The notes beneath the pieces were generated by a model. That model worked only from the letters and a program-made list of their open reading frames with translations, ran no database searches and had not been told where the DNA came from. This document shows, in pieces, positions 4,414 to 40,144 of a stretch of DNA of 64,000 nt (within the stretch, counting starts at the first letter, position 1; every line of letters starts with the position of its first letter). Source of the DNA: Escherichia coli (lineage in GTDB: Bacteria > Pseudomonadota > Gammaproteobacteria > Enterobacterales > Enterobacteriaceae). Both the position numbers and the translations under genes were made by a program. The DNA lies in assembly GCF_050920415.1 (NCBI RefSeq), contig NZ_CP169309.1; one strand, given 5' to 3'.

Positions 4414-5409
4414 TTATTCCTGCGCAATATTGATTCTTGTCACTGGCGAACTCTGGCGATTCTCCCACAGCACCGTTAATCCACGCTGTAAGGCAATAAA
4501 AATGAACAGCAAAATGCCGATAGCGATTTTCGTCCACCATGAGCTCAGCGTGCCATCAAAGTTTATGTAAGTCTGAATTAGCCCCTGAATCGCCACGCCA
4601 AAAAGCGTCCCTAATACCGTTCCAACGCCGCCGCTCAAAAGTGTACCGCCAATCACCACCGACGCGATAGCGTCCAGTTCCACACCTACGCCCGCCAGCG
4701 CATATCCAGCCTGGGTATAAATCGAGAAGACTATCCCCGCCAGTGTTGCCAGCCCGGTGGAGAGCATATAAATGCGTATAGTGGTGCTGCGAGTGGAAAT
4801 CCCCATCAGGTTCGCCGACGTCGCGTTGCCACCAATGGCATATACCTGATTACCAAAACGGGTACGATGCGCGAGGAATATGCCGATAACTACCACCGCC
4901 AGCATCAGTAGCCCCATCGCACTTAAGCGACCGCCGCCAGGGATTTTCCATGCAAGGCTTGAGAGCGTGTCATAAACAGGATGGTTTATCGGGATCGATT
5001 CTTCCGAAACGAGATAGCTGACGCCGCGCAAAAAGAACATTCCTGCCAGGGTAATGATAAACGCCGGGATCTTCAGGGCGTCGATCAGAAGCCCCATAAA
5101 TGCGCCGAAGGCACAGCCCATCACCAGCACCAGTGGAAACGCCAGCAGCGGCGAGAGGCCGAAATCGCCAATCACTTTTGCCAGAAACACGCCGGTAAAG
5201 GCGATCACCGAACCGACGGAGAGATCGATCCCACCGGAGAGGATCACAAAGGTCATGCCAACGGCGATGATCCCCAGAAAAGCGTTATCGGTCAGGATAT
5301 TGCAGATCACTCTTGTGGAAGCAAAACCGGGAAACTGCGTCAGACAGTAGAGATAACCCAGCACAAAGACGCCGATGGTGATCATAAGCGGCAGGTTACG
5401 TTTTATCAC
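4414..5409 (-). CDS. yjfF: Galactofuranose ABC transporter permease
   Basis: 331 aa polytopic membrane ORF, ABC sugar-permease family; 14 nt overlap with ytfT upstream. Confidence 0.92.
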   Translation of the reverse strand: MIKRNLPLMITIGVFVLGYLYCLTQFPGFASTRVICNILTDNAFLGIIAVGMTFVILSGGIDLSVGSVIAFTGVFLAKVIGDFGLSPLLAFPLVLVMGCAFGAFMGLLIDALKIPAFIITLAGMFFLRGVSYLVSEESIPINHPVYDTLSSLAWKIPGGGRLSAMGLLMLAVVVIGIFLAHRTRFGNQVYAIGGNATSANLMGISTRSTTIRIYMLSTGLATLAGIVFSIYTQAGYALAGVGVELDAIASVVIGGTLLSGGVGTVLGTLFGVAIQGLIQTYINFDGTLSSWWTKIAIGILLFIFIALQRGLTVLWENRQSSPVTRINIAQE

Positions 5410-10584: not shown

Positions 10585-16133
<5,549 letters not shown>

Positions 16134-28921: not shown

Positions 28922-29542
28922 TTAGAGGATTTCCAGCAGTTCGACTTCAAACACCAGGGTGCTGAACGGAGGGATGGACGCGCCTGCGCCACGCTCGCCA
29001 TAGGCCAGTTCCTGCGGGATAGTCAGTTCCCATTTAGAACCTACCGGCATCAGAGTCAGTGCTTCAATCCAGCCAGGGATCACGCCGTTAACCGGGAATT
29101 CAGCTGGCTCGCCACGGGCAACAGAGCTGTCAAACACAGTGCCGTCGATCAGTTTACCGGTGTAATGAACACGAACGCGGTCAGTGCGTGCCGGAATTGC
29201 GCCTTCCCCCTGATTGATCACGCGGAATTGCAGGCCAGATTCGGTGCTATTCACACCTTCTTTTTTGGCGTTTTCTTCCAGGTATTTCACACCTTCAGCA
29301 GCCATCGCCTGGAAACGCTGACGACGAACGGCATCGGCGCGTTCGTGGATTTCACGCAGCGCGCGGTGCACCACATCAACCGGAACAGCCGGATGTTTGC
29401 CTTCCAGCGCATCGGCAATGCCTGCAACCAGGGCTTCTGGCAGCAGCCCTTCCAGGCCTGATTCACTCAGTTGTTGCCCTACCTGCAAACCAATGCCGTA
29501 GCTTGCTTGCGCTTCGATGGTGTCAAAAGTTGGGGTGGTCAT
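28922..29542 (-). CDS. fklB: FKBP-type peptidyl-prolyl cis-trans isomerase
   Basis: ORF track begins at 29701; ATG 29540-29542 gives [18 protein letters not shown]... (206 aa) with a C-terminal FKBP domain. Confidence 0.93.
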
Positions 29543-29759
29543 CGTATTTCCTTTCTTAGGGTATAAAGTAGCGGGCAGCATATCAGCCACACTTCTTTGG
29601 GTAAAACTTTGTCGCGGGAATGATGACAAATCCCGGGGAAAAAGAAACAATAGCAATATCCCGTATGAATATAATAAAGGCGGGTTTACCACGGACATCA
29701 TAGCGTTAGCTTATTCATAGGCTATGATTGAGGAACAAGACGCGGAGCAGGAGGAAACC

Positions 29760-30398
29760 ATGCCCGGGCGCTTTGAACTAAAACCAACCCTGGAGAAAGT
29801 CTGGCACGCGCCGGACAATTTTCGCTTCATGGACCCGCTACCGCCGATGCATCGTCGGGGGATCATTATTGCCGCTATTGTATTGGTGGTCGGATTTCTA
29901 CTCCCGTCGGATGATACGCCAAACGCGCCGGTGGTGACGCGTGAAGCACAGTTAGATATTCAGTCGCAATCACAACCGCCGACAGAAGAACAGCTGCGGG
30001 CGCAATTAGTCACACCACAAAATGATCCTGATCAGGTGGCTCCGGTCGCTCCAGAACCGATACAGGAAGGCCAACCGGAAGAGCAGCCGCAAACCTCGCA
30101 AGTGCAACCTTTCCAGCCAGATAGCGGAATTGACAATCAATGGCGCTCTTATCGTGTCGAACCCGGTAAAACAATGGCGCAGCTGTTCCGCGACCACGGA
30201 CTGCCCGCTACCGATGTCTATGCAATGGCGCAGGTAGAAGGCGCGGATAAGCCACTGAGTAATTTGCAAAATGGGCAGATGGTGAAAATCCGCCAGAACG
30301 CCAGCGGCGTGGTGACGGGCTTAACCATTGATACGGGAAATAATCAACAGGTTCTGTTTACCCGCCAGCCGGATGGCAGTTTTATTCGCGCGCGGTAG
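29760..30398 (+). CDS. ytfB: OapA-domain cell-division/envelope protein YtfB
   Basis: GAGGAA Shine-Dalgarno then ATG 29760 ([19 protein letters not shown]..., 212 aa); TM anchor and Pro/Gln-rich linker. Confidence 0.9.
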
Positions 30399-31029
30399 AT
30401 GAAGGGTCAACCAGAAGCCAGCTAAGGATCGTCTCTTTGATGACCTTACGCCTGGCTTCCAGTGCCTGCGGTGAAACCATACTGATGTGATAAACCAGGC
30501 CAAGCGTATGTTGGTTGATCAAATAATATCCTCCAAGAGCAGCAATATTAATATTCACCTGCAACGGGTCGATATCTGGCTTAAAAATATTGCGCCGTTT
30601 GCCTTCAGCTAATAATGACTCCATTAACTGTAAGTGTGCGTGGTTAATTTCTAAAAGGCGCTGTGATTTTGCATAATGCACCCCTTTACTCTGGTTTTCA
30701 CTATGCACAATTTTTAAAAACCAGGGGTTAGCAATGTAATAATCCCAGGTGAAATCGATAATTTTCTCAATGGCTTTTTGTGGCGGAAGACCTGAGAAAT
30801 CAAGGGATTTTTCTTTTTGCCGAATATCATTCCAGGTATATTCCAGCACTTCGATAAATAAATTTTCTTTATTACCAAAGTGATGATAAACCGTCTGTTT
30901 ACTGCACTCCGCGGCCTTGACGATATTATCGACTCTGGCCCCTTCGTAACCATATTCGGCAAATTCATTAACCGCACATAACAACAGCTTTTCCTTCAGG
31001 CTTTGTACGTTGCTGGTATCAAGATACAT
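30382..31029 (-). CDS. TetR/AcrR-family transcriptional regulator (islet regulator)
   Basis: ORF track start 31089 is GTG; ATG 31027-31029 gives [58 protein letters not shown] (TetR N-terminal HTH), 215 aa. Divergent from the downstream operon; 3' end overlaps the ytfB 3' end by 17 bp. Confidence 0.85.
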
Positions 31030-31151
31030 TCCGCTTCCCCACGTCTTCTTCGTGATGACTATCTTAACCCGATTTGTTAGAAGCTCCACTAAAATGGCTA
31101 AAAACTCGCAATTTCATCGGGTTATCAAATGCTCTGTGATCATTATCGCAT

Positions 31152-31173
31152 ATCAACCAACTAGATGGTTGAT
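31152..31173. promoter_or_regulatory. Candidate TetR operator (22 bp palindrome) in the islet divergent promoter
   Basis: ATCAACCA-ACTAGA-TGGTTGAT: perfect 8 bp inverted arms with a 6 bp spacer, between the regulator start (31029) and the operon start (31241). Confidence 0.4.
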
Positions 31174-31240
31174 CTTTCTTGCCACACATTGCAAGCTAAT
31201 CGTCACTTAAGGAAATAATATTCAAAAAGAGGGTTATTGT

Positions 31241-32032
31241 ATGAAGTCAACACGTCCTGTTGCTGTCATCACTGGAGCCGCACGTGGTATTGGAAAGGGC
31301 TGTGCACTGGAACTTGCGCGTGGCGGATTTAATCTGCTGATTAATGATCGTCCGGATGCCGACAGCGTAGAAAAATTACATGCCACACAACAAGAATGTC
31401 TGGCGGAAGGCGTGGAAGTGATTTGCTTCCCTGCTGATGTTGGCGATCTCTCCCTTCATGAAGAGATGCTCGACGCGGCGCAAAACCAGTGGGGACGTCT
31501 GGACTGTCTACTCAACAACGCAGGCATTTCAGTGAAAAAACGCGGTGACCTCCTCGACCTCGAACCAGACAGCTTCGACCAAAACATTGCCATTAACACC
31601 CGTGCGCCGTTCTTCCTTGCTCAGGCATTCAGTAAGCGATTACTGGCACAGCCGAAACCGGAAGCAGAACTGCCGCACCGCTCGATTATTTTTGTCAGTT
31701 CCATAAACGCCATCATGCTGGCGATGAATCGCGGCGAATATACCATTGCAAAAACTGCCGTCTCCGCCGCAGCTCGTCTGTTTGCCGCTCGCCTTTGCAA
31801 TGAACAAATTGGCGTTTATGAAGTGCGCCCTGGCCTAATCAAAACCGATATGACCATTCCGGCAACGGCTTATTACGACGAACTGATTGCTAAGGGGTTA
31901 GTGCCGTGGGGACGTTGGGGTTATCCGGCTGATATTGCCTCAACGGTCCGCGCGATGGCGGAAGGCAAACTGATTTACACCTGTGGTCAGGCGGTCGCCA
32001 TCGACGGCGGCTTAAGTATGCCGCGCTTCTGA
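31241..32032 (+). CDS. Short-chain dehydrogenase/reductase (SDR) family oxidoreductase
   Basis: 263 aa ORF; TGAARGIG cofactor-binding motif, NNAG, and catalytic Y-x3-K (EYTIAK); AGAGGG Shine-Dalgarno. Confidence 0.85.
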   Translation: MKSTRPVAVITGAARGIGKGCALELARGGFNLLINDRPDADSVEKLHATQQECLAEGVEVICFPADVGDLSLHEEMLDAAQNQWGRLDCLLNNAGISVKKRGDLLDLEPDSFDQNIAINTRAPFFLAQAFSKRLLAQPKPEAELPHRSIIFVSSINAIMLAMNRGEYTIAKTAVSAAARLFAARLCNEQIGVYEVRPGLIKTDMTIPATAYYDELIAKGLVPWGRWGYPADIASTVRAMAEGKLIYTCGQAVAIDGGLSMPRF

Positions 32033-32041
32033 GGCTGAATC

Positions 32042-32884
32042 ATGAGAGATCTGTTACAACGCCCGGATTTATTCAGTATCAATACTGCGACACTGGGCTA
32101 TAAAACGCCGCTACCTGCCATTATTGATGCCTGCGCCGCACGCGGTATTGGCGCGATTGCCCCCTGGCGCAGGGAGTTGCAGGGTGAAGATCTCCAGCAA
32201 ATCGCCCGCCAGCTTGCTGCCAGTAACATGAGCGTTTCCGGTTTGTGTCGTAGCACCTATTACACCGCGCCGACGCTGACGGAACGCAAACTGGCGATTG
32301 ATGATAACCGCCGGGCGCTGGACGACGCCGCTGTACTGAACGCCGCCTGTTATATGCAGGTGGTTGGCGGTCTGCCAATGGGAACAAAAGATCTGTACGA
32401 AGCACGGGAACAGGTGAAACAAGGGATTCGCCAGTTGCTGCCACATTCGAAAGAGGTCGGCGTGCCAATTGCACTGGAGCCACTGCACCCGATGACTGCT
32501 GCCGATCGTTCTTGTCTGTGCACATTACGTCAGGCGCTGGACTGGTGTGATGAACTCGATCCCGATGGCGAATTTGGCCTCGGCGTGGCGGTAGATGTCT
32601 ACCATGTCTGGTGGGACCCGGATCTCGCCAGTCAGATCCTGCGTGCCGGAAAACGCATCCTCGCGTTTCATGTTTCCGACTGGCTGGTGCCAACCACCGA
32701 TTTAGTCAATGATCGGGGAATGCCGGGAGATGGCGTCATTAATATTCCCTCTATTCGTCGGCTGGTTGAAAACGCCGGATTTAATGGCGCTATTGAACTG
32801 GAAATATTCTCGCCGTACTGGTGGCAGAAAGATATTAACAGCACGCTGGATATTAGCGTCGATCGCATCGCGCATTATTGCTAA
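32042..32884 (+). CDS. Sugar-phosphate isomerase/epimerase-like TIM-barrel enzyme (xylose-isomerase-like fold)
   Basis: 280 aa ORF with the LEP / FHVSD signature pattern typical of this fold; 9 nt downstream of the SDR stop. Confidence 0.7.
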   Translation: MRDLLQRPDLFSINTATLGYKTPLPAIIDACAARGIGAIAPWRRELQGEDLQQIARQLAASNMSVSGLCRSTYYTAPTLTERKLAIDDNRRALDDAAVLNAACYMQVVGGLPMGTKDLYEAREQVKQGIRQLLPHSKEVGVPIALEPLHPMTAADRSCLCTLRQALDWCDELDPDGEFGLGVAVDVYHVWWDPDLASQILRAGKRILAFHVSDWLVPTTDLVNDRGMPGDGVINIPSIRRLVENAGFNGAIELEIFSPYWWQKDINSTLDISVDRIAHYC

Positions 32885-32893
32885 GGAATGATC

Positions 32894-33670
32894 ATGAGTG
32901 ACCAACCCGTTCTGTTCAGCAGAGCGGCGGCTTCCTGCCGCCTGACATTGAACCGTGAAGATAAATGTCATGCTATTAATGAAGAAATGATCGAATCTCT
33001 CGACCATTATTTAAATGAAATTGAAAACGACACCACATTACGATTAGTCGAATTAACGGCAACCGGCGATAAATTCTTTTGTGCGGGCGGCGATATTAAA
33101 TCGTGGTCAGCCTATTCGCCATTAGATATGGGCAGAAAATGGATTAAACGCGGCAATGACGTTTTTAATCGCCTGCGCAATTTACCTCAATTAACGGTTG
33201 CGAATCTCAACGGTCATACTATCGGCGGTGGTATTGAACTTGCCTTGTGCTGCGATATTCGTATTGCCCGCCCCAGTGCGAAATTCTCTAATCCGGAAGT
33301 AATGCTCGGCATGGTGCCTGGCTGGATGGGCATTGAACGCGTGCTTAATCAGGTCGGTCCGGTGGTCGGTCGCCAGATGCTGATGCTGGGTAAACGCCTG
33401 ACGGCGCAGGAAGCTCAGGCGGCGAATTTAATTGATGAAGTGGTAGAAAAAGAACAGGTGGAAAGCTGGATGGCGAATCAGTTAGCGCAGCTGGAAAAAT
33501 GCGGTCCGGTGGCGCTCGCACATATCAAGCAACTGATTCTGGCTCTAGAAAATAAACATGCTGATTACCCGCACCAGTTACTGGCTGGATTAATGTCCGC
33601 CACTCAGGATTGCCAGCAGGCGACGCGCGCATTTGCCGAAAAAAGTAGCGTGAGCTTCCAAAATCAATAA
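32894..33670 (+). CDS. Enoyl-CoA hydratase/isomerase (crotonase) family protein
   Basis: Crotonase hallmarks FFCAGGDIKSW and GHTIGGGIELALCCDIRIA; ATG 32894 is preferred over 32888 on Shine-Dalgarno spacing. Confidence 0.85.
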   Translation: MSDQPVLFSRAAASCRLTLNREDKCHAINEEMIESLDHYLNEIENDTTLRLVELTATGDKFFCAGGDIKSWSAYSPLDMGRKWIKRGNDVFNRLRNLPQLTVANLNGHTIGGGIELALCCDIRIARPSAKFSNPEVMLGMVPGWMGIERVLNQVGPVVGRQMLMLGKRLTAQEAQAANLIDEVVEKEQVESWMANQLAQLEKCGPVALAHIKQLILALENKHADYPHQLLAGLMSATQDCQQATRAFAEKSSVSFQNQ

Positions 33671-33679
33671 GGAAATTGT

Positions 33680-35221
33680 ATGCGTAAGATAACAACCGCC
33701 GAGACACTGGCGGCGCAAATTCAGGACGGCGCAACCATTGCCATTAGCGGTAATGGCGGCGGCATGGTGGAAGCGGACCATATTCTGGCTGCTATTGAAG
33801 CGCGTTTCCTGCAAACCGGACACCCGCGCGATCTGACATTAATCCACTCGCTGGGCATTGGCGATCGCGACTGCAAAGGCACTAACCGCTTCGCTCATGC
33901 AGATATGCTCAAACGCATCATTGCCGGACATTTTACCTGGTCGCCCAAGATGCAGGATCTGGTGAAAAACAATGCTATTGAAGCCTACTGCTTCCCTGGT
34001 GGCGTAATTCAGGCACTGCTGCGGGAGATCGGTGCCGGACGTCCAGGGCTTTTTACCCACGTTGGACTGGGATCGTTTGTTGATCCGCGCAACGGCGGCG
34101 GTAAGTCGAACGCCAGCACCACTGAGGATCTGGTAGAACTGATTGAAATCGACGGTGAAACCAAACTTCGTTATCGCCCTTTCAAAGTGGATTACGCGAT
34201 TTTGCGTGGCACTTATGCTGATCCGCGTGGCAACGTCAGCCTCGAAGAAGAGGCGATTGATATGGATAGCTATTCCATGGCGCTGGCAGCACACAACAGC
34301 GGCGGCAAAGTGTTCGTACAGGTGCGCGATGTGCTGGAAGCTGGTGCCATTGAACCACGCCGGGTCAAATTACCGGGCATTCTGGTTGATGGCATCGTTG
34401 AACACCGCGAACAACCACAAACCTATCTTGGCGGTTACGATCTGACCATTAGCGGTCAGCATCGCCGTCTAAGTTCTAACGACGCAATTGAACTGGTTAG
34501 TCATCCGGTGCGCCGCCTGATTGCCCGTCGGGCAGCACGCGAACTGGTAGCTGGCGCTTCAACCAACTTTGGCTTTGGCATTCCCGGCGGCATTCCTGGG
34601 GTTGCACTGCGCGAAGGCGTGCCTTATCAAAGTTTATGGCTGAGCGTCGAGCAAGGCGTGCATAACGGTATGATGCTGGATGATGCTCTGTTCGGCTGCG
34701 CCCGTAACGCCGATGCCATTATTCCATCACTCGATCAATTCGAATTCTACAGTGGCGGAGGGATCGATATCACCTTCCTCGGCATGGGAGAGATGGATCA
34801 GCATGGTAACGTCAACGTCTCCCATCTCAATGGCAATCTCATTGGCCCCGGCGGATTTCTCGAAATTGCGCAAAACGCCCGTAAAGTGGTGTTCTGTGGC
34901 ACGTTCGACGCCAAAGGTAGCAAGATTGATGTAACACCAGATGGCTTGCATATCGCCCAGTCAGGTCAAATCCCTAAACTGGTTACCCAGGTGGAAAAAA
35001 TCACTTTTAGCGCCGCCTACGCACAGCAAAGCGGTCAGGAAGTGTTGTATATCACTGAACGTGCAGTATTCCAGTTAACGGCAGAAGGCGTTGAATTAAT
35101 TGAAATCGCGCCGGGTGTGGAGATTGAACGCGACATTCTGCCGCATATGGCTTTCCGTCCAATTATCAATCAGCCACGCCTGATGGAAAGTAGCCTGTTT
35201 ACGCCGATGGAGGATGCATGA
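33680..35221 (+). CDS. Fused family-I CoA-transferase (acyl-CoA:acetate/3-ketoacid CoA-transferase-like)
   Basis: 513 aa ORF about the size of fused alpha/beta family-I CoA-transferases, with glycine-rich loops (ISGNGGG, SGGGIDITFLGMGE); AAGGA Shine-Dalgarno. Confidence 0.7.
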   Translation: MRKITTAETLAAQIQDGATIAISGNGGGMVEADHILAAIEARFLQTGHPRDLTLIHSLGIGDRDCKGTNRFAHADMLKRIIAGHFTWSPKMQDLVKNNAIEAYCFPGGVIQALLREIGAGRPGLFTHVGLGSFVDPRNGGGKSNASTTEDLVELIEIDGETKLRYRPFKVDYAILRGTYADPRGNVSLEEEAIDMDSYSMALAAHNSGGKVFVQVRDVLEAGAIEPRRVKLPGILVDGIVEHREQPQTYLGGYDLTISGQHRRLSSNDAIELVSHPVRRLIARRAARELVAGASTNFGFGIPGGIPGVALREGVPYQSLWLSVEQGVHNGMMLDDALFGCARNADAIIPSLDQFEFYSGGGIDITFLGMGEMDQHGNVNVSHLNGNLIGPGGFLEIAQNARKVVFCGTFDAKGSKIDVTPDGLHIAQSGQIPKLVTQVEKITFSAAYAQQSGQEVLYITERAVFQLTAEGVELIEIAPGVEIERDILPHMAFRPIINQPRLMESSLFTPMEDA

Positions 35222-37299
35222 GTCAGCTTGATGACACCCTCCTTGATGCGCTGACGCACGTCACTTTCCCGAAGGGTTTTGTGTCAGCAGAGCCAGCGTC
35301 AATTGTCACGGTTGAAGATGTCGATTACCCGATCTGGCAAGTTGATGCGCTAGTCGTTGGTAGCGGCGCGGCAGGGCTGCGCGCAGCGGTTGAACTTAAG
35401 CGCCGCCAGCAAAATGTGCTGATCGCCACCGCCGGGTTATATATGGGGACATCGGCATGTTCTGGTTCCGATAAACAGACGCTGTTTACCGCCGCTACCG
35501 CGGGCAACGGCGATAACTTCGCTAAACTGGCGGAAGCACTGGCGAGCGGTGGGGCGATGGATCACGACACCGCTTATGTCGAAGCGGTAGGTTCTCTGCA
35601 CACTCTTGGCGGGTTGCAATATCTTGGTCTGGAATTACCGGAAGATCGCTATGGCGCAATTCTTCGTTATCAAACCGACCATGACGAAGCCGGGCGAGCA
35701 ACCTCGTGTGGGCCGCGTACTTCTCGCCTAATGGTGAAAGTATTGCTGGAGGAAGTGCAGCGTCTTGCCATACCACTACTGACCAGTGCAACGGTGATTA
35801 AGCTCCTGCATCAGCACGGAGAGAATGGCGAAGATCGCGTTGCGGGGGCTATTCTCGCAACCGGTTCCCGCGCCTATAACCCTTGGGGGCTGGCTATTGT
35901 GACGGCGCCCAATGTGGTACTGGCAACGGGCGGACCGGGCGAGCTTTATCGCGACAGTGTTTATCCACATAAATGCTTCGGCTCGCTGGGGCTGGCGCTG
36001 GAAGAAGGTCTGACGCTAACCAATCTGACCGAAAGCCAGTTTGGTATAGGCACGCCGCGCAGCACGTTTCCGTGGAATTTGTCCGGCACCTATGTACAGG
36101 TGATCCCATATATCTATTCCGTGGATGCCGGGGGCAACGAGTATAACTTCCTCGCAGATTACTATCGCACCACCCAGGAGCTGGCTTCAAACATCTTCCG
36201 TAAAGGCTATCAGTGGCCGTTTCACGCCACACGAGTGATGGATTTTGGCTCCAGCTTGTTAGATATGGCAGTAGCGCAAGAGCAGCAATCAGGGCGTCAG
36301 GTATTTATGGATTTCAATCGCAATCCTGAACCTGTGCCGGGTGACCTGCCGTTCTCATTAGATCGACTGGACGACGACGTTCGCGCGTATCTGGAAAATA
36401 ACGACGCTCTGGCACCATCGCCCATCGAACGACTGCAACGAATGAATCCGCTGTCTATCTCGCTGTATAAGATGCACGGTTACGATCTCACCACGCAGCC
36501 ATTGCAGTTTGCCATGAATAATCAGCATATGAATGGCGGCATTGAAGTGGATATCTGGGGGCAAACCTCCCTGTCCGGCTGTTTCGCCGTGGGGGAAGTT
36601 GCTGGCACACACGGCGTCACTCGCCCTGGTGGTGCGGCATTGAATGCCGGGCAGGTTTTTGCTGTTCGTCTGGCACGTTTTATTGGTTGCACGCAAAAGC
36701 GGTCCGTTGAGGATGATGTCGCGCAGCTAGTAGCCTCACCTCTGCATACAATCAGAGAAGTTATCGCTCAGGCACTGGCAAACGAGAACGGAATGACGCT
36801 GGCAACGGTAAAAGAAAAAATCCAGGCGCGAATGTCTGATTACGCGGGATTTATTTGCCATGCTGATAAAGTTCGTCACGCCGCCCGTGACGCCATGCTG
36901 TTAAATGAATTTGCGCAGCAACATGGTCTAACTATCAACCACGCCGGTGAAATTGCCGAGCTATTTATGTGGCGGCATATGGCATTAACATCCGCTGCGG
37001 TGTTAAGCCAGCTATCACATTATATTGATGCTGGCGGTGGTAGTCGTGGAGCGCGGATGATTATTGATCCACAAGGAGAATATCTTCCACAAACTCGTCG
37101 CGGCGCAATCGAAGATTGGCGTTTTCGCTCTGAACAAGCTGAAGATAAAAATCACAGACTAACTCTCTCCTTTTCACAAGGTTTATTTATTAATGAAATT
37201 AAGTTCTTGAGAAACTTACCGCATATTAAAGGTATTTACTTTGAGAAGAATTGGCCTGATTTTCTTAACGGAACAATTTATCAGACACGGCATGAATAA
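35218..37299 (+). CDS. FAD-binding flavoprotein of the fumarate reductase / succinate dehydrogenase / L-aspartate oxidase superfamily
   Basis: 693 aa ORF; N-terminal dinucleotide-binding motif DALVVGSGAAGLRAAVEL; ATG overlaps the CoA-transferase stop (ATGA); the last ~300 nt are AT-rich. Confidence 0.75.
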   Translation: MSQLDDTLLDALTHVTFPKGFVSAEPASIVTVEDVDYPIWQVDALVVGSGAAGLRAAVELKRRQQNVLIATAGLYMGTSACSGSDKQTLFTAATAGNGDNFAKLAEALASGGAMDHDTAYVEAVGSLHTLGGLQYLGLELPEDRYGAILRYQTDHDEAGRATSCGPRTSRLMVKVLLEEVQRLAIPLLTSATVIKLLHQHGENGEDRVAGAILATGSRAYNPWGLAIVTAPNVVLATGGPGELYRDSVYPHKCFGSLGLALEEGLTLTNLTESQFGIGTPRSTFPWNLSGTYVQVIPYIYSVDAGGNEYNFLADYYRTTQELASNIFRKGYQWPFHATRVMDFGSSLLDMAVAQEQQSGRQVFMDFNRNPEPVPGDLPFSLDRLDDDVRAYLENNDALAPSPIERLQRMNPLSISLYKMHGYDLTTQPLQFAMNNQHMNGGIEVDIWGQTSLSGCFAVGEVAGTHGVTRPGGAALNAGQVFAVRLARFIGCTQKRSVEDDVAQLVASPLHTIREVIAQALANENGMTLATVKEKIQARMSDYAGFICHADKVRHAARDAMLLNEFAQQHGLTINHAGEIAELFMWRHMALTSAAVLSQLSHYIDAGGGSRGARMIIDPQGEYLPQTRRGAIEDWRFRSEQAEDKNHRLTLSFSQGLFINEIKFLRNLPHIKGIYFEKNWPDFLNGTIYQTRHE

Positions 37300-37319
37300 T
37301 ATTGCAAAGGTTAATCACT

Positions 37320-37796
37320 ATGCGAAATATAATCAGATCTATTAATTCATTGCTTTCCACATTGAACATTACCATTTTGGCAATTATTGTGATGTGCGTT
37401 ACATGGCAAGTAGTAGCACGATTTATCTTTAAAAGCCCCAGCATTTTTACAGATGAACTTAGTCGTTTACTATTTATTTGTCTTGGACTTTTTGGTGGTG
37501 CTTATACTGCCGGACAAAACCGACATCTGGCCATTGATCTTCTGCCAATGATGCTAAAAGGAAAATCCCGACGTTATTTATTCTTATGTATTCAGGCCAT
37601 TGTTATTCTTTTTGCCTCTATCATTATGGTTTATGGTGGCGGGTTATTAACACTGGACACATTTGATTCAGGGCAAACTTCTCCGGCTTTAGGCTGGCAG
37701 ATGGGATATATTTACATGAGCATTCCAATAAGTGGCATCCTTATTATTATATACACCATAGATACAGTTTTAACCGAACTTAAACAACCACTCTAA
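37320..37796 (+). CDS. TRAP transporter small permease (DctQ-like)
   Basis: ORF track start 37302 is TTG; ATG 37320 with AAGG Shine-Dalgarno gives a ~158 aa four-TM protein; strongly AT-rich. Confidence 0.8.
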   Translation: MRNIIRSINSLLSTLNITILAIIVMCVTWQVVARFIFKSPSIFTDELSRLLFICLGLFGGAYTAGQNRHLAIDLLPMMLKGKSRRYLFLCIQAIVILFASIIMVYGGGLLTLDTFDSGQTSPALGWQMGYIYMSIPISGILIIIYTIDTVLTELKQPL

Positions 37797-37818
37797 AATA
37801 AGTAGGGATGGAGAAAAC

Positions 37819-39120
37819 ATGGATTACTGGTTACCGATCATTGTGTTATTTGGTGCTTTCTTTTTTATGTTGGCATTAGGTGTTCCTATTGTCTATGCTA
37901 TTGGTTTATCAACACTGGCATCAATTACTACACAACTCGATTTCAACTCAGCGTTAAGTGTGGTTTCCCAAAAGTTAGCCTCCGGGTTAGATAGTTTTAC
38001 GTTGTTGGCAATCCCATTTTTTATTTTGTCTGGCAACATTATGAATCACGGAGGAATAGCGCGACGATTAATCAACTTTGCCCGAATTCTCGGCGGTCGT
38101 CTGCCAGGCTCACTTGCCCACTGTAATATTCTTGCCAATATGCTGTTCGGGGCAATTTCTGGTTCAGCCGTGGCTTCGGCGGCTGCGATGGGCGGCGTCA
38201 TGCATCCGCAACAGGTTAAAGAGGGCTACGACCCGGCATTCAGTACTGCAGTTAACGTTGCCTCTGCCCCGACGGGTTTGCTTATTCCACCCAGTAATAC
38301 GTTAATCGTCTATTCACTGGTCAGTGGTGGTACTTCTATTGCCGCACTGTTCCTGGCAGGATATGTCCCGGGAATTTTATTGGGCCTGGCGCTGATGACT
38401 GTGGCTGGTATTATCGCGGTACGCCGGGGTTATCCAAAACCAGAACGTCCGACTTTGCGCCAGGCTGGAGTGGCAATATGGATGGCGATCCCCAGTATTT
38501 TCCTGATTGTATTAATTATGGGTGGTGTACTAAGCGGTATTTTTACCCCGACAGAAGCATCTGCAATTGCGGTAATTTATACCCTTTTCCTTGCACTGGT
38601 TCTTTATCGTGAAATATCAGTTAAAGATTTACCTAAGATATTTCTGGAGTCCGTCATTACCACTGCAATTGTCTTGTTGTTAATTGGTTCTTCAATGGGA
38701 ATGTCATGGGCAATGTCAAACGCTGACGTTCCCTTCCTGATTCTCGATTTGCTTAACACTATTTCTGACAATCCAATAATCATCCTGCTTATTATCAATA
38801 TTATCCTGTTGATTATCGGCACATTTATGGATATGACACCGGCAGTACTGATTTTTACGCCGATATTTTTACCCGTTGTCACCGAACTGGGTATGGACCC
38901 GATTCACTTTGGTATTGTCATGGTACTGAACATGTGTATCGGTATTTGTACTCCGCCTGTAGGCAGTGTGTTATTTGTCGGTTGTAGTGTATCTAAATTA
39001 CCGATTAATAAAATTATCAAACCTATGCTGCCATTCTATGCCGTGATGGTATTGGTGCTGGCAATGGTTACCTATATTCCGCAAATCAGTATGGCATTGC
39101 CAAGAGCACTGGGCTACTGA
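37819..39120 (+). CDS. TRAP transporter large permease (DctM-like)
   Basis: 433 aa polytopic membrane ORF MDYWLPIIVLFGAFFFMLALGVPIVYAIGL...; AT-rich. Confidence 0.88.
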   Translation: MDYWLPIIVLFGAFFFMLALGVPIVYAIGLSTLASITTQLDFNSALSVVSQKLASGLDSFTLLAIPFFILSGNIMNHGGIARRLINFARILGGRLPGSLAHCNILANMLFGAISGSAVASAAAMGGVMHPQQVKEGYDPAFSTAVNVASAPTGLLIPPSNTLIVYSLVSGGTSIAALFLAGYVPGILLGLALMTVAGIIAVRRGYPKPERPTLRQAGVAIWMAIPSIFLIVLIMGGVLSGIFTPTEASAIAVIYTLFLALVLYREISVKDLPKIFLESVITTAIVLLLIGSSMGMSWAMSNADVPFLILDLLNTISDNPIIILLIINIILLIIGTFMDMTPAVLIFTPIFLPVVTELGMDPIHFGIVMVLNMCIGICTPPVGSVLFVGCSVSKLPINKIIKPMLPFYAVMVLVLAMVTYIPQISMALPRALGY

Positions 39121-39172
39121 TATGCATTAACTGGCGGCACCTGCCGCCATATTTATTAGAAAAGGAACATCT

Positions 39173-40144
39173 ATGAAAATAAAAGTATCCGCTGGCATTA
39201 TCGGTGCTGTTCTTATGCTATCCGCAAGCCAGTCCTGGGCAGTAACATTAAAACTTAGCCATAATCAGGATAAATCTCATCCTGTTCATAAAGCGATGGA
39301 GTTCTTTGCGAAAAAGAGCAAAGAGTACTCTAACGGTGATATTACTATTCGTATTTATCCAAATGGAACATTGGGTACTCAACGAGAAACAATGGAGCTG
39401 ATTCGTTCTGGTGCTATTCCGCTGGTAAAAACCAATGCGGCGGAGATGGAAGCCTTCGAGAGTTCGTATAAAATATTTAGCCTGCCTTATTTGTTCCGCG
39501 ATCGTGATCATTATTATCAGGTCATGCAAGGCGATATCGGAAGGAAAATCCTCGACTCAACGAAAAGCAAAGGTTATTTCGGGCTGACTTTCTATGATGG
39601 AGGCGCCCGCAGTTTCTACGGTAATAAACCGGTACTGAAACCAGACGATCTGAAAGGCATGAAAGTCCGTGTCCAGCCAAGTCCTGGCGCAGTTGAAATG
39701 ATCAAAGTCATGGGCGGTAACCCGACGCCACTGGATTACGGCGAGCTGTATACGGCCTTACAGCAGGGCGTGGTCGATATGGCAGAAAACAGCGTGATGG
39801 CACTGACCACTATGCGTCACGGTGAAGTGGCAAAATCCTTTAGCCTTGATGAGCACACCATGGTGCCCGATGTGGTTCTGATGAGTAATGCTGCATTTGA
39901 TAAACTCAGCCCTGAAAATCAGGCAGTTATATTAAAAGCAGCGAAAGAATCGATGAGTTACATGAAGGAGTTATGGAGCGAGCAAGAGAAACAAGAATTT
40001 GCAAAACTGGATAAAATGGGCGTAAAAGTCTACCCGGTTGATAAAGCACCGTTTATCGAGAAAGTACAACCGATGTACGCAAACTTCGCTAAAGATAACC
40101 CTGCCCTTGCCCCAATGCTGGCTGATATTCAGGCGGCTAAGTAA
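39173..40144 (+). CDS. TRAP transporter periplasmic solute-binding protein (DctP-like)
   Basis: 323 aa ORF with signal peptide MKIKVSAGIIGAVLMLSASQSWA; last gene of the operon. Confidence 0.88.
   Translation: MKIKVSAGIIGAVLMLSASQSWAVTLKLSHNQDKSHPVHKAMEFFAKKSKEYSNGDITIRIYPNGTLGTQRETMELIRSGAIPLVKTNAAEMEAFESSYKIFSLPYLFRDRDHYYQVMQGDIGRKILDSTKSKGYFGLTFYDGGARSFYGNKPVLKPDDLKGMKVRVQPSPGAVEMIKVMGGNPTPLDYGELYTALQQGVVDMAENSVMALTTMRHGEVAKSFSLDEHTMVPDVVLMSNAAFDKLSPENQAVILKAAKESMSYMKELWSEQEKQEFAKLDKMGVKVYPVDKAPFIEKVQPMYANFAKDNPALAPMLADIQAAK

Follow-up and report, generated by a model that had tools for sequence, protein, structure and literature searches.

An old convergent overlap between ytfB and the TetR-family regulator gene ytfA in Escherichia coli, probably a by-product of stop-codon loss

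Results

Gene content of the locus

The window (the whole 64,000-nucleotide stretch of E. coli contig NZ_CP169309.1 that was analysed) reads tamA ... ytfE-cycA-fklB-ytfB, then a regulator with an eight-gene operon, then rplI-rpsR-priB-rpsF-ula. The features of the locus, in window coordinates, are:

29760-30398, + strand: ytfB (cell division protein YtfB, OapA/LysM-like), 212 aa; ORF list, RefSeq and Pfam
30382-30398: tail-to-tail overlap of ytfB and ytfA, 17 bp; sequence and junction alignments
30382-31029, - strand: ytfA, TetR/AcrR-family regulator, 215 aa; ORF list, RefSeq and Pfam
30399-30413: probable shortened remnant of a former spacer, now coding for the YtfA tail (..VDPSS); junction alignments
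30414-30459, + strand: imperfect 19-pair hairpin, GAAGCCAGCUAAGGAUCGUC-UCUUU-GAUGACCUUACGCCUGGCUUC, in ytfA codons 191-206
30560-30650, + strand: approximate equivalent of a K-12 Rho-termination region, mapped from a peak of Adams et al. 2021
31152-31173: perfect inverted repeat, ATCAACCA-N6-TGGTTGAT, in the divergent intergenic region between ytfA and the operon; candidate YtfA operator
31241-40144, + strand: 'islet' operon of eight genes; RefSeq annotation of an identical genome

YtfB carries the Pfam domains OapA_N (residues 23-50) and LysM_OapA (residues 127-211 of 212), its last residues falling inside the latter. YtfA consists of a TetR_N domain (PF00440, residues 19-61, E = 2e-13) followed by TetR_C_29 (PF17938, residues 83-201, E = 2.8e-30), and its nearest solved structure is 3npi, with which the alignment stops at residue 207. 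The name ytfA has been applied to this TetR-family regulator by Colclough 2019 (PMC6790063), as well as in the K-12 annotation; the same study reported the gene in some E. coli and in all examined strains of E. fergusonii and E. albertii.

The operon encodes five enzymes (an SDR, a sugar-phosphate isomerase/epimerase-like protein, an enoyl-CoA hydratase, a CoA transferase and an FAD-dependent oxidoreductase) and a TRAP transporter made up of a small permease, a large permease and a substrate-binding protein. Its gene order is the same beside ytfA homologues in other genera. The core of the candidate operator, AACCAACTAGATGGTT, is kept in Salmonella, Citrobacter, Lelliottia and Leminorella, and nearly kept beside YtfA homologues of ~60% identity. 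With a TetR helix-turn-helix joined to a C-terminal domain, a divergent operon and an intergenic palindrome that may serve as operator, YtfA is likely to be the repressor of the operon at 31241-40144.

The overlap at the junction

The ytfB stop codon is a TAG at 30396-30398 on the + strand, while the ytfA stop is a TAA on the - strand, read as TTA at 30382-30384 on the + strand (sequence and ORF list). Each stop falls within the coding sequence of the opposite gene. Across the 17 bp, ytfB reads F(part)-I-R-A-R-stop and ytfA reads S(part)-T-A-R-E-stop. The original prediction of a 17-bp convergent overlap between ytfB and the TetR gene thus agrees with the sequence, the ORF list and the RefSeq gene ends in a 100%-identical genome, NZ_CP169399, in which ytfB occupies 14061-14699 and the TetR/AcrR gene 14683-15330.

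Both genes are genuine, as indicated by full-length Pfam domains, homologues across genera and RefSeq annotation. For ytfA, the raw ORF list leaves two possible starts, a GTG at 31089 or an ATG at 31029; RefSeq adopts the ATG, giving 215 aa, and the choice leaves the overlap unaffected. An alternative stop or start assignment, raised at the outset as a way of removing the overlap, was not found. As the overlap is set by two stop codons in well-supported frames, no other gene model abolishes it.

The variable region and its boundary

We compared window positions 29700-31300 with 5426 complete E. coli genomes by megablast. Matches were obtained in 5416 of these, only 3141 of which contained the whole of ytfA together with the start of the operon; about 40% of complete E. 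coli genomes lack the ytfA-operon block or have it in truncated form. In K-12, which is islet-free, yjfZ stands in place of the operon and ytfA is without its promoter and N-terminal 82 codons. The last 133 ytfA codons are kept, along with an identical 17-bp overlap. In MG1655 coordinates, the ytfA pseudogene b4205 lies at 4427694-4428095 and ytfB (b4206) at 4428079-4428717, such that the two share 4428079-4428095. The K-12 deletion breakpoint lies inside ytfA, at about window position 30784, and in other strains IS200/IS605 and IS1 elements have inserted at about 30489.

Since K-12 retains both the overlap and 133 codons of ytfA, the boundary of the variable region lies within ytfA and not at ytfB. 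The notion that the overlap marks the junction of the islet with the core genome is therefore contradicted by an islet-free strain with the identical overlap, and the 3' end of ytfA is effectively core in E. coli. The genes annotated between ytfB and rplI are the regulator, the enzymes and the TRAP transporter, with neither an integrase nor a tRNA gene nor any other mobility gene among them. A mobile genomic island is supported neither by this annotation nor by the K-12 boundary, which lies inside ytfA rather than at the flanking core gene.

Junction alleles within E. coli

Representatives of the junction were aligned, and the 5426 complete E. coli genomes were counted with 121-nt junction probes. 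Three alleles were distinguished:

Allele A: 17-bp overlap; YtfA of 215 aa; 4985-5007 of the 5426 genomes
Allele B: spacer of 0 bp, the stops abutting (TGA/TTA); YtfA ending ..SWLLVNPARG*, 212 aa; 389 genomes
Allele C: spacer of 12 bp; YtfA ending ..SWLLVNPRM*, 211 aa; 10 genomes

Allele C was first seen on a metagenomic contig whose fklB-cycA segment is 98.4% identical to that of K-12, which identifies it as E. coli. The ytfA sequences of the three alleles differ at 18-26% of nucleotides (74-82% identity), a divergence within one species that implies exchange of the block by recombination. Relative to allele A, allele C is 92% identical in ytfB and about 75% identical in ytfA, suggesting a recombination breakpoint close to the junction. 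When a donor of allele B was sought, no locus compared exceeded about 82% nucleotide identity.

The C-terminal FIRAR of YtfB is invariant across all of these alleles.

Junctions in other species and genera

A YtfB profile scan of species-representative genomes yielded 80 loci, in each of which the ytfB and ytfA stops were located. The 17-bp overlap was found in two E. coli representatives, E. albertii, E. whittamii and Escherichia sp. E1V33, the last with ytfA truncated as in K-12. The remaining loci (Citrobacter, Enterobacter, Lelliottia, Kosakonia and others) contain ytfB with no ytfA within 4 kb, as do Salmonella arizonae and diarizonae. YtfB stops at one and the same residue in nearly all 80 loci, be ytfA present or absent. 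The original prediction had allowed that the junction reshaped one of the two C-termini. For YtfB this fails, its FIRAR end being constant with or without ytfA, and so does the attribution to an insertion event; the suggestion holds for the regulator, in which the change is one of stop-codon loss across a tiny pre-existing spacer.

Further junctions were taken from the contigs of ytfA homologues. Salmonella enterica and one Citrobacter metagenome-assembled genome (MAG) share the synteny, the 17-bp overlap and a YtfA of 215 aa. Two other forms have spacers:

Entomohabitans: spacer of +15 bp; YtfA ending ..SWLLVAK*, 209 aa
Lelliottia RWM.1: spacer of +11 bp; YtfA ending ..SWLLEAQ*, 209 aa

In Leminorella and four homologues of about 58-66% identity, the regulator and operon occur at unrelated loci, and the proteins measure 207-209 aa. 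Measured from the ytfB stop, the conserved W-S codons of ytfA lie 19 nt away in all overlapping forms; in allele B the interval is 27 nt, and where a spacer exists it is 29-36 nt. The tail-to-tail arrangement of ytfA with ytfB in Escherichia, Salmonella enterica, a Citrobacter, Lelliottia and Entomohabitans upholds the long co-residence of the two genes that the overlap had been taken to imply.

Transcript ends

The absence of both a spacer and a canonical hairpin-plus-U terminator between ytfB and ytfA, as first proposed, was confirmed by a terminator scan. Across 29400-31400 the scan returned four weak canonical sites against 2.0 +/- 1.5 expected from shuffles, and none on the + strand between the ytfB stop and 31152. 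The only - strand candidate past the ytfA stop, at 30367-30345, is weak, with 3 GC pairs.

Published data from K-12 indicate where ytfB transcription ends. Adams et al. 2021 (PMC7815308) reported a region of Rho termination that lies on the strand of ytfB and is classed as antisense to ytfA, with a peak at MG1655 4427873 on the minus strand (Rho score 9.65, p = 8e-39; their supplementary file 2). Without bicyclomycin, coverage was 219 upstream of this peak and 39 downstream; with the drug it was 185 and 318 (Adams et al. 2021, PMC7815308). Through the MG1655 annotation and a gap-free alignment, the peak lies 206 nt beyond the ytfB stop (4428079) and maps to window ~30604, at the coarse resolution of a method that uses 800-nt windows. 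The loss of transcription past ytfB is thus bicyclomycin-sensitive in a strain where ytfA is a promoterless pseudogene.

The position of the peak, antisense to ytfA, means that in K-12 ytfB transcripts run into ytfA and are ended there by Rho. This agrees with the read-through that had been anticipated from the lack of a terminator, with Rho stopping the transcript. Neither transcript would then end at the junction itself, and ytfB read-through would be halted by Rho about 200 nt downstream, as in K-12. A rut-like excess of C over G was sought downstream of the hairpin in 50-nt bins over 30399-30850 and was not seen, C being about equal to G.

The hairpin within ytfA

The hairpin at 30414-30459 spans 46 nt and begins 15 nt past the ytfB stop. 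In a fold of the 72 nt following that stop its minimum free energy is -29.4 kcal/mol (z -4.1), and 0 of 200 shuffles were as stable. It has no U-tract on either strand, and an intrinsic terminator at the junction was rejected, as the sequence that comes next is CAGUGCCUG. Moreover, the hairpin lies within the ytfA frame about 30 nt before the ytfA stop, and so cannot end a complete ytfA mRNA.

We gauged whether the YtfA peptide accounts for the structure by synonymous recoding, in which the peptide was held fixed, codons were resampled (1500-3000 times) and the fraction that equalled or exceeded the native sequence in folding stability was recorded:

Window (allele A), ytfA beside ytfB: 0/3000
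K-12, ytfA beside ytfB: 0.007
E. coli allele B, ytfA beside ytfB: 0
E. coli allele C, ytfA beside ytfB: 0.04
Salmonella enterica, ytfA beside ytfB: 0.0007
Citrobacter MAG, ytfA beside ytfB: 0
Entomohabitans, ytfA beside ytfB: 0
Lelliottia, ytfA beside ytfB: 0.003
Five homologues at other loci, ytfA not beside ytfB: 0.13-0.86

Leminorella, whose YtfA is 82% identical to that of the window and lies at another locus, gave a fraction of 0.33-0.55. The lineages bearing the hairpin are related to one another and are not independent.

In a covariation test on the hairpin over 13 lineages, 88.7% of cells in the alignment are paired, and double changes occur at one pair only, which takes the forms CG, GC, UA and UG through synonymous third positions. 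The overall covariation score was matched by 2 of 500 shuffles. This covariation in aligned sequences may be regarded as suggestive, not as proof. The hairpin codons show nearly as much synonymous diversity as other ytfA codons (0.35 vs 0.39, rank 38 of 192 windows). A strand test counted 30 G.U cells against 14 A.C cells, but 13 of the 30 derive from a single invariant pair, and the G.U pairs do not tell the two strands apart.

Species lacking ytfA have a GC-rich, mostly U-less hairpin within a few nucleotides of the ytfB stop. In the available part of supplementary file 1 of Adams et al. 2021, the K-12 Term-seq 3' ends include none from MG1655 4426606 to 4428652.

Discussion

Origin of the overlap

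The ytfB/ytfA overlap is real, old and an ordinary case of its kind, and was already present in the K-12 reference annotation. We consider it likely that it arose through loss of the ytfA stop codon and 3' extension of the ytfA frame, as a neutral by-product and not as a device. Relatives without the overlap (+15, +12, +11 and 0) possess a shorter YtfA, of 209-212 aa as opposed to 215 aa. The short tail occurs in all distant homologues and is therefore ancestral, making the overlap the derived state.

The sequence of events may be pictured as follows. Firstly, ytfA would have lain tail-to-tail against ytfB for a long time, with almost no spacer. Secondly, in the lineage of the common Escherichia/Salmonella allele, the spacer would have shrunk and the ytfA stop codon would have been lost with it. 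Translation of ytfA would then have extended 14 nt into the antisense of the final ytfB codons, where the new stop would be supplied by the antisense of the Phe-Ile codons TT(T/C)-A, TTT-A giving TAA and TTC-A giving TGA. As the Phe-Ile dipeptide guarantees an antisense stop, read-through in this frame ends there, hence the constant 17 bp.

The acquired tail bears the marks of such a passive origin. Its residues vary with the synonymous sites of ytfB: the window has TARE, K-12 and E. albertii have TAHE, E. whittamii has TARG and Salmonella has IWRE. YtfA residues from about 208 to 215 lie beyond both TetR_C_29 (which ends at 201) and the 3npi alignment (which ends at 207). Judged by its sequence, the tail is outside the TetR fold, weakly constrained and not conserved.

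The direction of spacer change is one that we infer by parsimony from a handful of lineages of a patchy, recombining islet. That three genera show the -17 state could be due to transfer or to parallel events instead of one ancient deletion, and the constant 19-nt geometry across those genera could betray some constraint on the overlap itself.

Alternative explanations

The strongest of the alternatives takes up that last point and holds that the overlap is maintained by selection for cross-regulation of ytfB and ytfA, whether by transcriptional interference, RNase III cleavage of the sense/antisense duplex or collision-dependent termination. The identical 17-bp geometry in Escherichia, Salmonella and Citrobacter despite diverged tail sequences, the strong hairpin at the junction and the documented K-12 read-through of the ytfB strand antisense to ytfA would all be in keeping with such coupling. 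Head-on collision of RNA polymerases at convergent genes, reportedly a proposed mechanism of termination, counts on the same side. However, antisense read-through needs no overlap and would be equal with a 12-bp spacer, and the length of 17 bp has a mechanical cause, since the Phe-Ile codons always supply an antisense stop. The K-12 lineage, furthermore, has lost ytfA function while keeping ytfB. Alleles with 0-bp and 12-bp spacers within E. coli, together with spacers of +11 to +15 in other genera, show the overlap to be dispensable. We regard selected coupling as improbable.

Under a second alternative, the islet landed beside ytfB and the insertion or recombination junction both created the overlap and altered a C-terminus. 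The patchiness of the ytfA-operon block lends this some appeal: many Citrobacter and Enterobacter species lack the block, as do Salmonella arizonae and diarizonae, and it is missing or truncated in the E. coli fraction given above. Very divergent alleles also coexist in E. coli, which speaks for horizontal exchange, and allele C combines a ytfB close to that of allele A with a far more distant ytfA. Yet islet-free K-12 retains the overlap with much of ytfA, the block is without an annotated integrase, tRNA or mobility gene, the ytfA-ytfB adjacency is kept in at least five genera, and YtfB has the same C-terminus whether ytfA is present or not. Exchanged alleles, moreover, bring their own junction type, and the junction is accordingly older than the exchange. 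An insertion scar is thus largely refuted, and we hold it to be very unlikely.

That the overlap is an annotation artefact, the product of a wrong frame or end through sequencing error or a false ORF, has a negligible likelihood: the over-long TetR ORF in the raw list (GTG start at 31089) illustrates how mechanical ends can mislead, but the two stops are fixed by frames with full-length Pfam domains, the same junction sequence recurs in about 5000 independent complete genomes, and PGAP and the curated MG1655 record annotate the overlap identically.

A possible dual use of the hairpin

Rho-terminated mRNAs have been described that carry protective stem-loops without a U-tract, placed immediately before rut sites (Dar & Sorek 2018, PMC6061677). 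By analogy, the stem-loop at 30414-30459 may protect the 3' end of ytfB mRNA, acting against exonucleases on a transcript terminated by Rho. The segment would then be a selected dual-use sequence, encoding the last helix of YtfA on one strand and forming the protective 3' structure of ytfB mRNA on the other, kept where ytfA abuts ytfB (Escherichia, Salmonella, Citrobacter, Lelliottia and Entomohabitans) and absent at other loci. Against a selected role stand the K-12 Term-seq listing with no 3' end at the stem-loop, the scarcely reduced synonymous diversity, covariation that comes down to essentially one base pair, G.U pairs that favour neither strand, the lack of a C-over-G skew downstream and the kinship of the lineages that bear the hairpin. 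We advance this proposal tentatively, believing it somewhat more apt to be wrong than right, and would place a selected role for the hairpin between that level and an even chance.

Were the dual use real, the 3'-end signals of a core gene would be hosted within, and travel with, an exchangeable accessory gene, and the survival of the ytfA 3' end in islet-free E. coli could find an explanation.

Significance and comparison with known systems

For biology at large the overlap matters little, short convergent overlaps being common; in K-12, 75 gene pairs overlap convergently, ytfB/ytfA among them (Huvet & Stumpf 2014, PMC4161906). Its value is more local. The picture of the locus is corrected, in that the regulator is ytfA and the boundary of the variable region lies inside this gene, not at ytfB. 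The junctions also provide a clean natural series for the birth of an overlap (+15, +12, +11, 0, -17), three states of which segregate within one species. The only mildly novel point, offered as an idea and a lead, is that ytfB 3'-end formation, by stem-loop and Rho, may be embedded antisense in ytfA.

Set against the transcripts described by Dar & Sorek 2018 (PMC6061677), ytfB is alike in having a U-less stem-loop past its stop codon, with bicyclomycin-sensitive termination about 150 nt downstream in K-12. Unlike in those transcripts, its stem-loop and termination zone lie in opposing coding sequence and not in an intergenic 3' UTR, its stem-loop coincides with no steady-state 3' end listed in the Term-seq data of Adams et al. 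2021, and a C-rich, G-poor tract is not evident. Bidirectional intrinsic terminators offer another comparison. Like them, the hairpin at 30414-30459 is palindromic, is situated at convergent gene ends and could fold in both transcripts; unlike them, it is flanked by neither an A-tract nor a U-tract.

The b4205/b4206 pair of K-12 resembles that of the window in its identical 17-bp overlap, its ytfA 3' sequence and its ytfB. It differs in that ytfA is truncated and the operon replaced by yjfZ, whereas the window holds an intact 215-aa regulator and the full operon. Among known systems, the stop-loss convergent pairs of Huvet & Stumpf 2014 (PMC4161906) share with ytfB/ytfA the short run of shared last codons, the moved stop and the non-overlapping orthologues. 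Nothing essential differs between those pairs and ours; in ytfB/ytfA, the states from +15 through +12, +11 and 0 to -17 can all be observed, with an end point fixed by Phe-Ile.

Divergence and replacement of ytfA in E. coli

At least three deeply divergent alleles of ytfB and its tail-to-tail neighbor ytfA, a TetR/AcrR-family regulator, are carried within E. coli, as was seen when window positions 29760-31300 were compared with loci L004, L005 (an allele-B strain), L006, and L097 (a metagenomic contig with allele C). Nucleotide identity between alleles ranged from 76 to 96% for ytfB and from 74 to 93% for ytfA, on backgrounds in which fklB and cycA were near-identical. The window carries a rare allele (18 records at ≥99% identity), and this allele is a mosaic: positions 31188-31286 matched L005 at 97 of 98 bases and L004 at 82 of 97. 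No donor of allele B was found among the loci compared.

Comparison of window positions 30784-40144 with the two K-12 loci (L002 and L101) revealed a replacement. In K-12 and many other strains ytfA lacks its N-terminal third and the 9-kb operon is missing altogether, with yjfZ, a DUF2686 gene absent from the window, in their place; the K-12 type of ytfA truncation also occurs in Escherichia sp. E1V33. Some K-12-type strains have a ytfA remnant interrupted by an IS200/IS605 element (tnpA with a TnpB/InsQ pseudogene) and IS1A, and in an O111 strain a portion of the remnant has moved beside espL2. These rearrangements, at the equivalent of window position ~30489, lie in:

L003, 4834-7853: altered ytfA remnant
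L007, 2630-3938: altered ytfA remnant

Sequence context of ytfB

A terminator scan flagged a feature within ytfB, at codons ~14-22:

29799-29825, plus strand: hairpin followed by a T-run (GTCTGGCACGCGCCGGAC AATTTTCGC)

The K-12 Term-seq data of Adams et al. (2021; PMC7815308) include a strong ORF-internal 3' end at 4428652 on the minus strand, with scores of 32337 and 96021 in two conditions, and the hairpin and T-run fall at this same place. Close to the 5' end of ytfB, transcription may end prematurely or be attenuated.

Beyond the other end of the gene, the first ~70 nt past the ytfB stop were compared in ytfA-less loci among L013-L087, which were retrieved by a YtfB profile scan. In ytfA-less Enterobacteriaceae, GC-rich REP-like palindromes (e.g. 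GCCGGGTAAGGCGAAGCCGCCACCCGGC) follow ytfB almost directly, and a convergent gene, finishing ..GGTGGGTGAATAA on the opposite strand, ends ~50-60 nt downstream of ytfB and ~1.1 kb before rplI.

One further match, L086 (NZ_VLXZ01000236.1, a 267-bp contig of an Alkalicoccobacillus porphyridii assembly), showed 99% protein identity to E. coli ytfB; it almost certainly reflects E. coli DNA contaminating the assembly.

The operon and its candidate operator

The operon and the intergenic region separating it from the divergent ytfA comprise:

31152-31173: perfect inverted repeat, ATCAACCA-N6-TGGTTGAT
31241-40144, plus strand: operon encoding an SDR, an AP_endonuc_2-type isomerase/epimerase, an enoyl-CoA hydratase, a CoA transferase, a 693-aa FAD-dependent oxidoreductase, and the small and large permeases and substrate-binding protein of a TRAP transporter

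The inverted repeat is likely the YtfA operator. Its core, AACCAACTAGATGGTT, is kept in Salmonella, Citrobacter, Lelliottia, and Leminorella, and a near-match, AACCAACTATTTGGTT, occurs at the other-locus homologues (~60% identical). Salmonella, Citrobacter, Lelliottia, Entomohabitans, and Leminorella all carry the operon genes in this order together with ytfA, and the same arrangement recurs at unrelated loci that hold more distant homologues. In some sources the regulator is labeled 'KstR2'.
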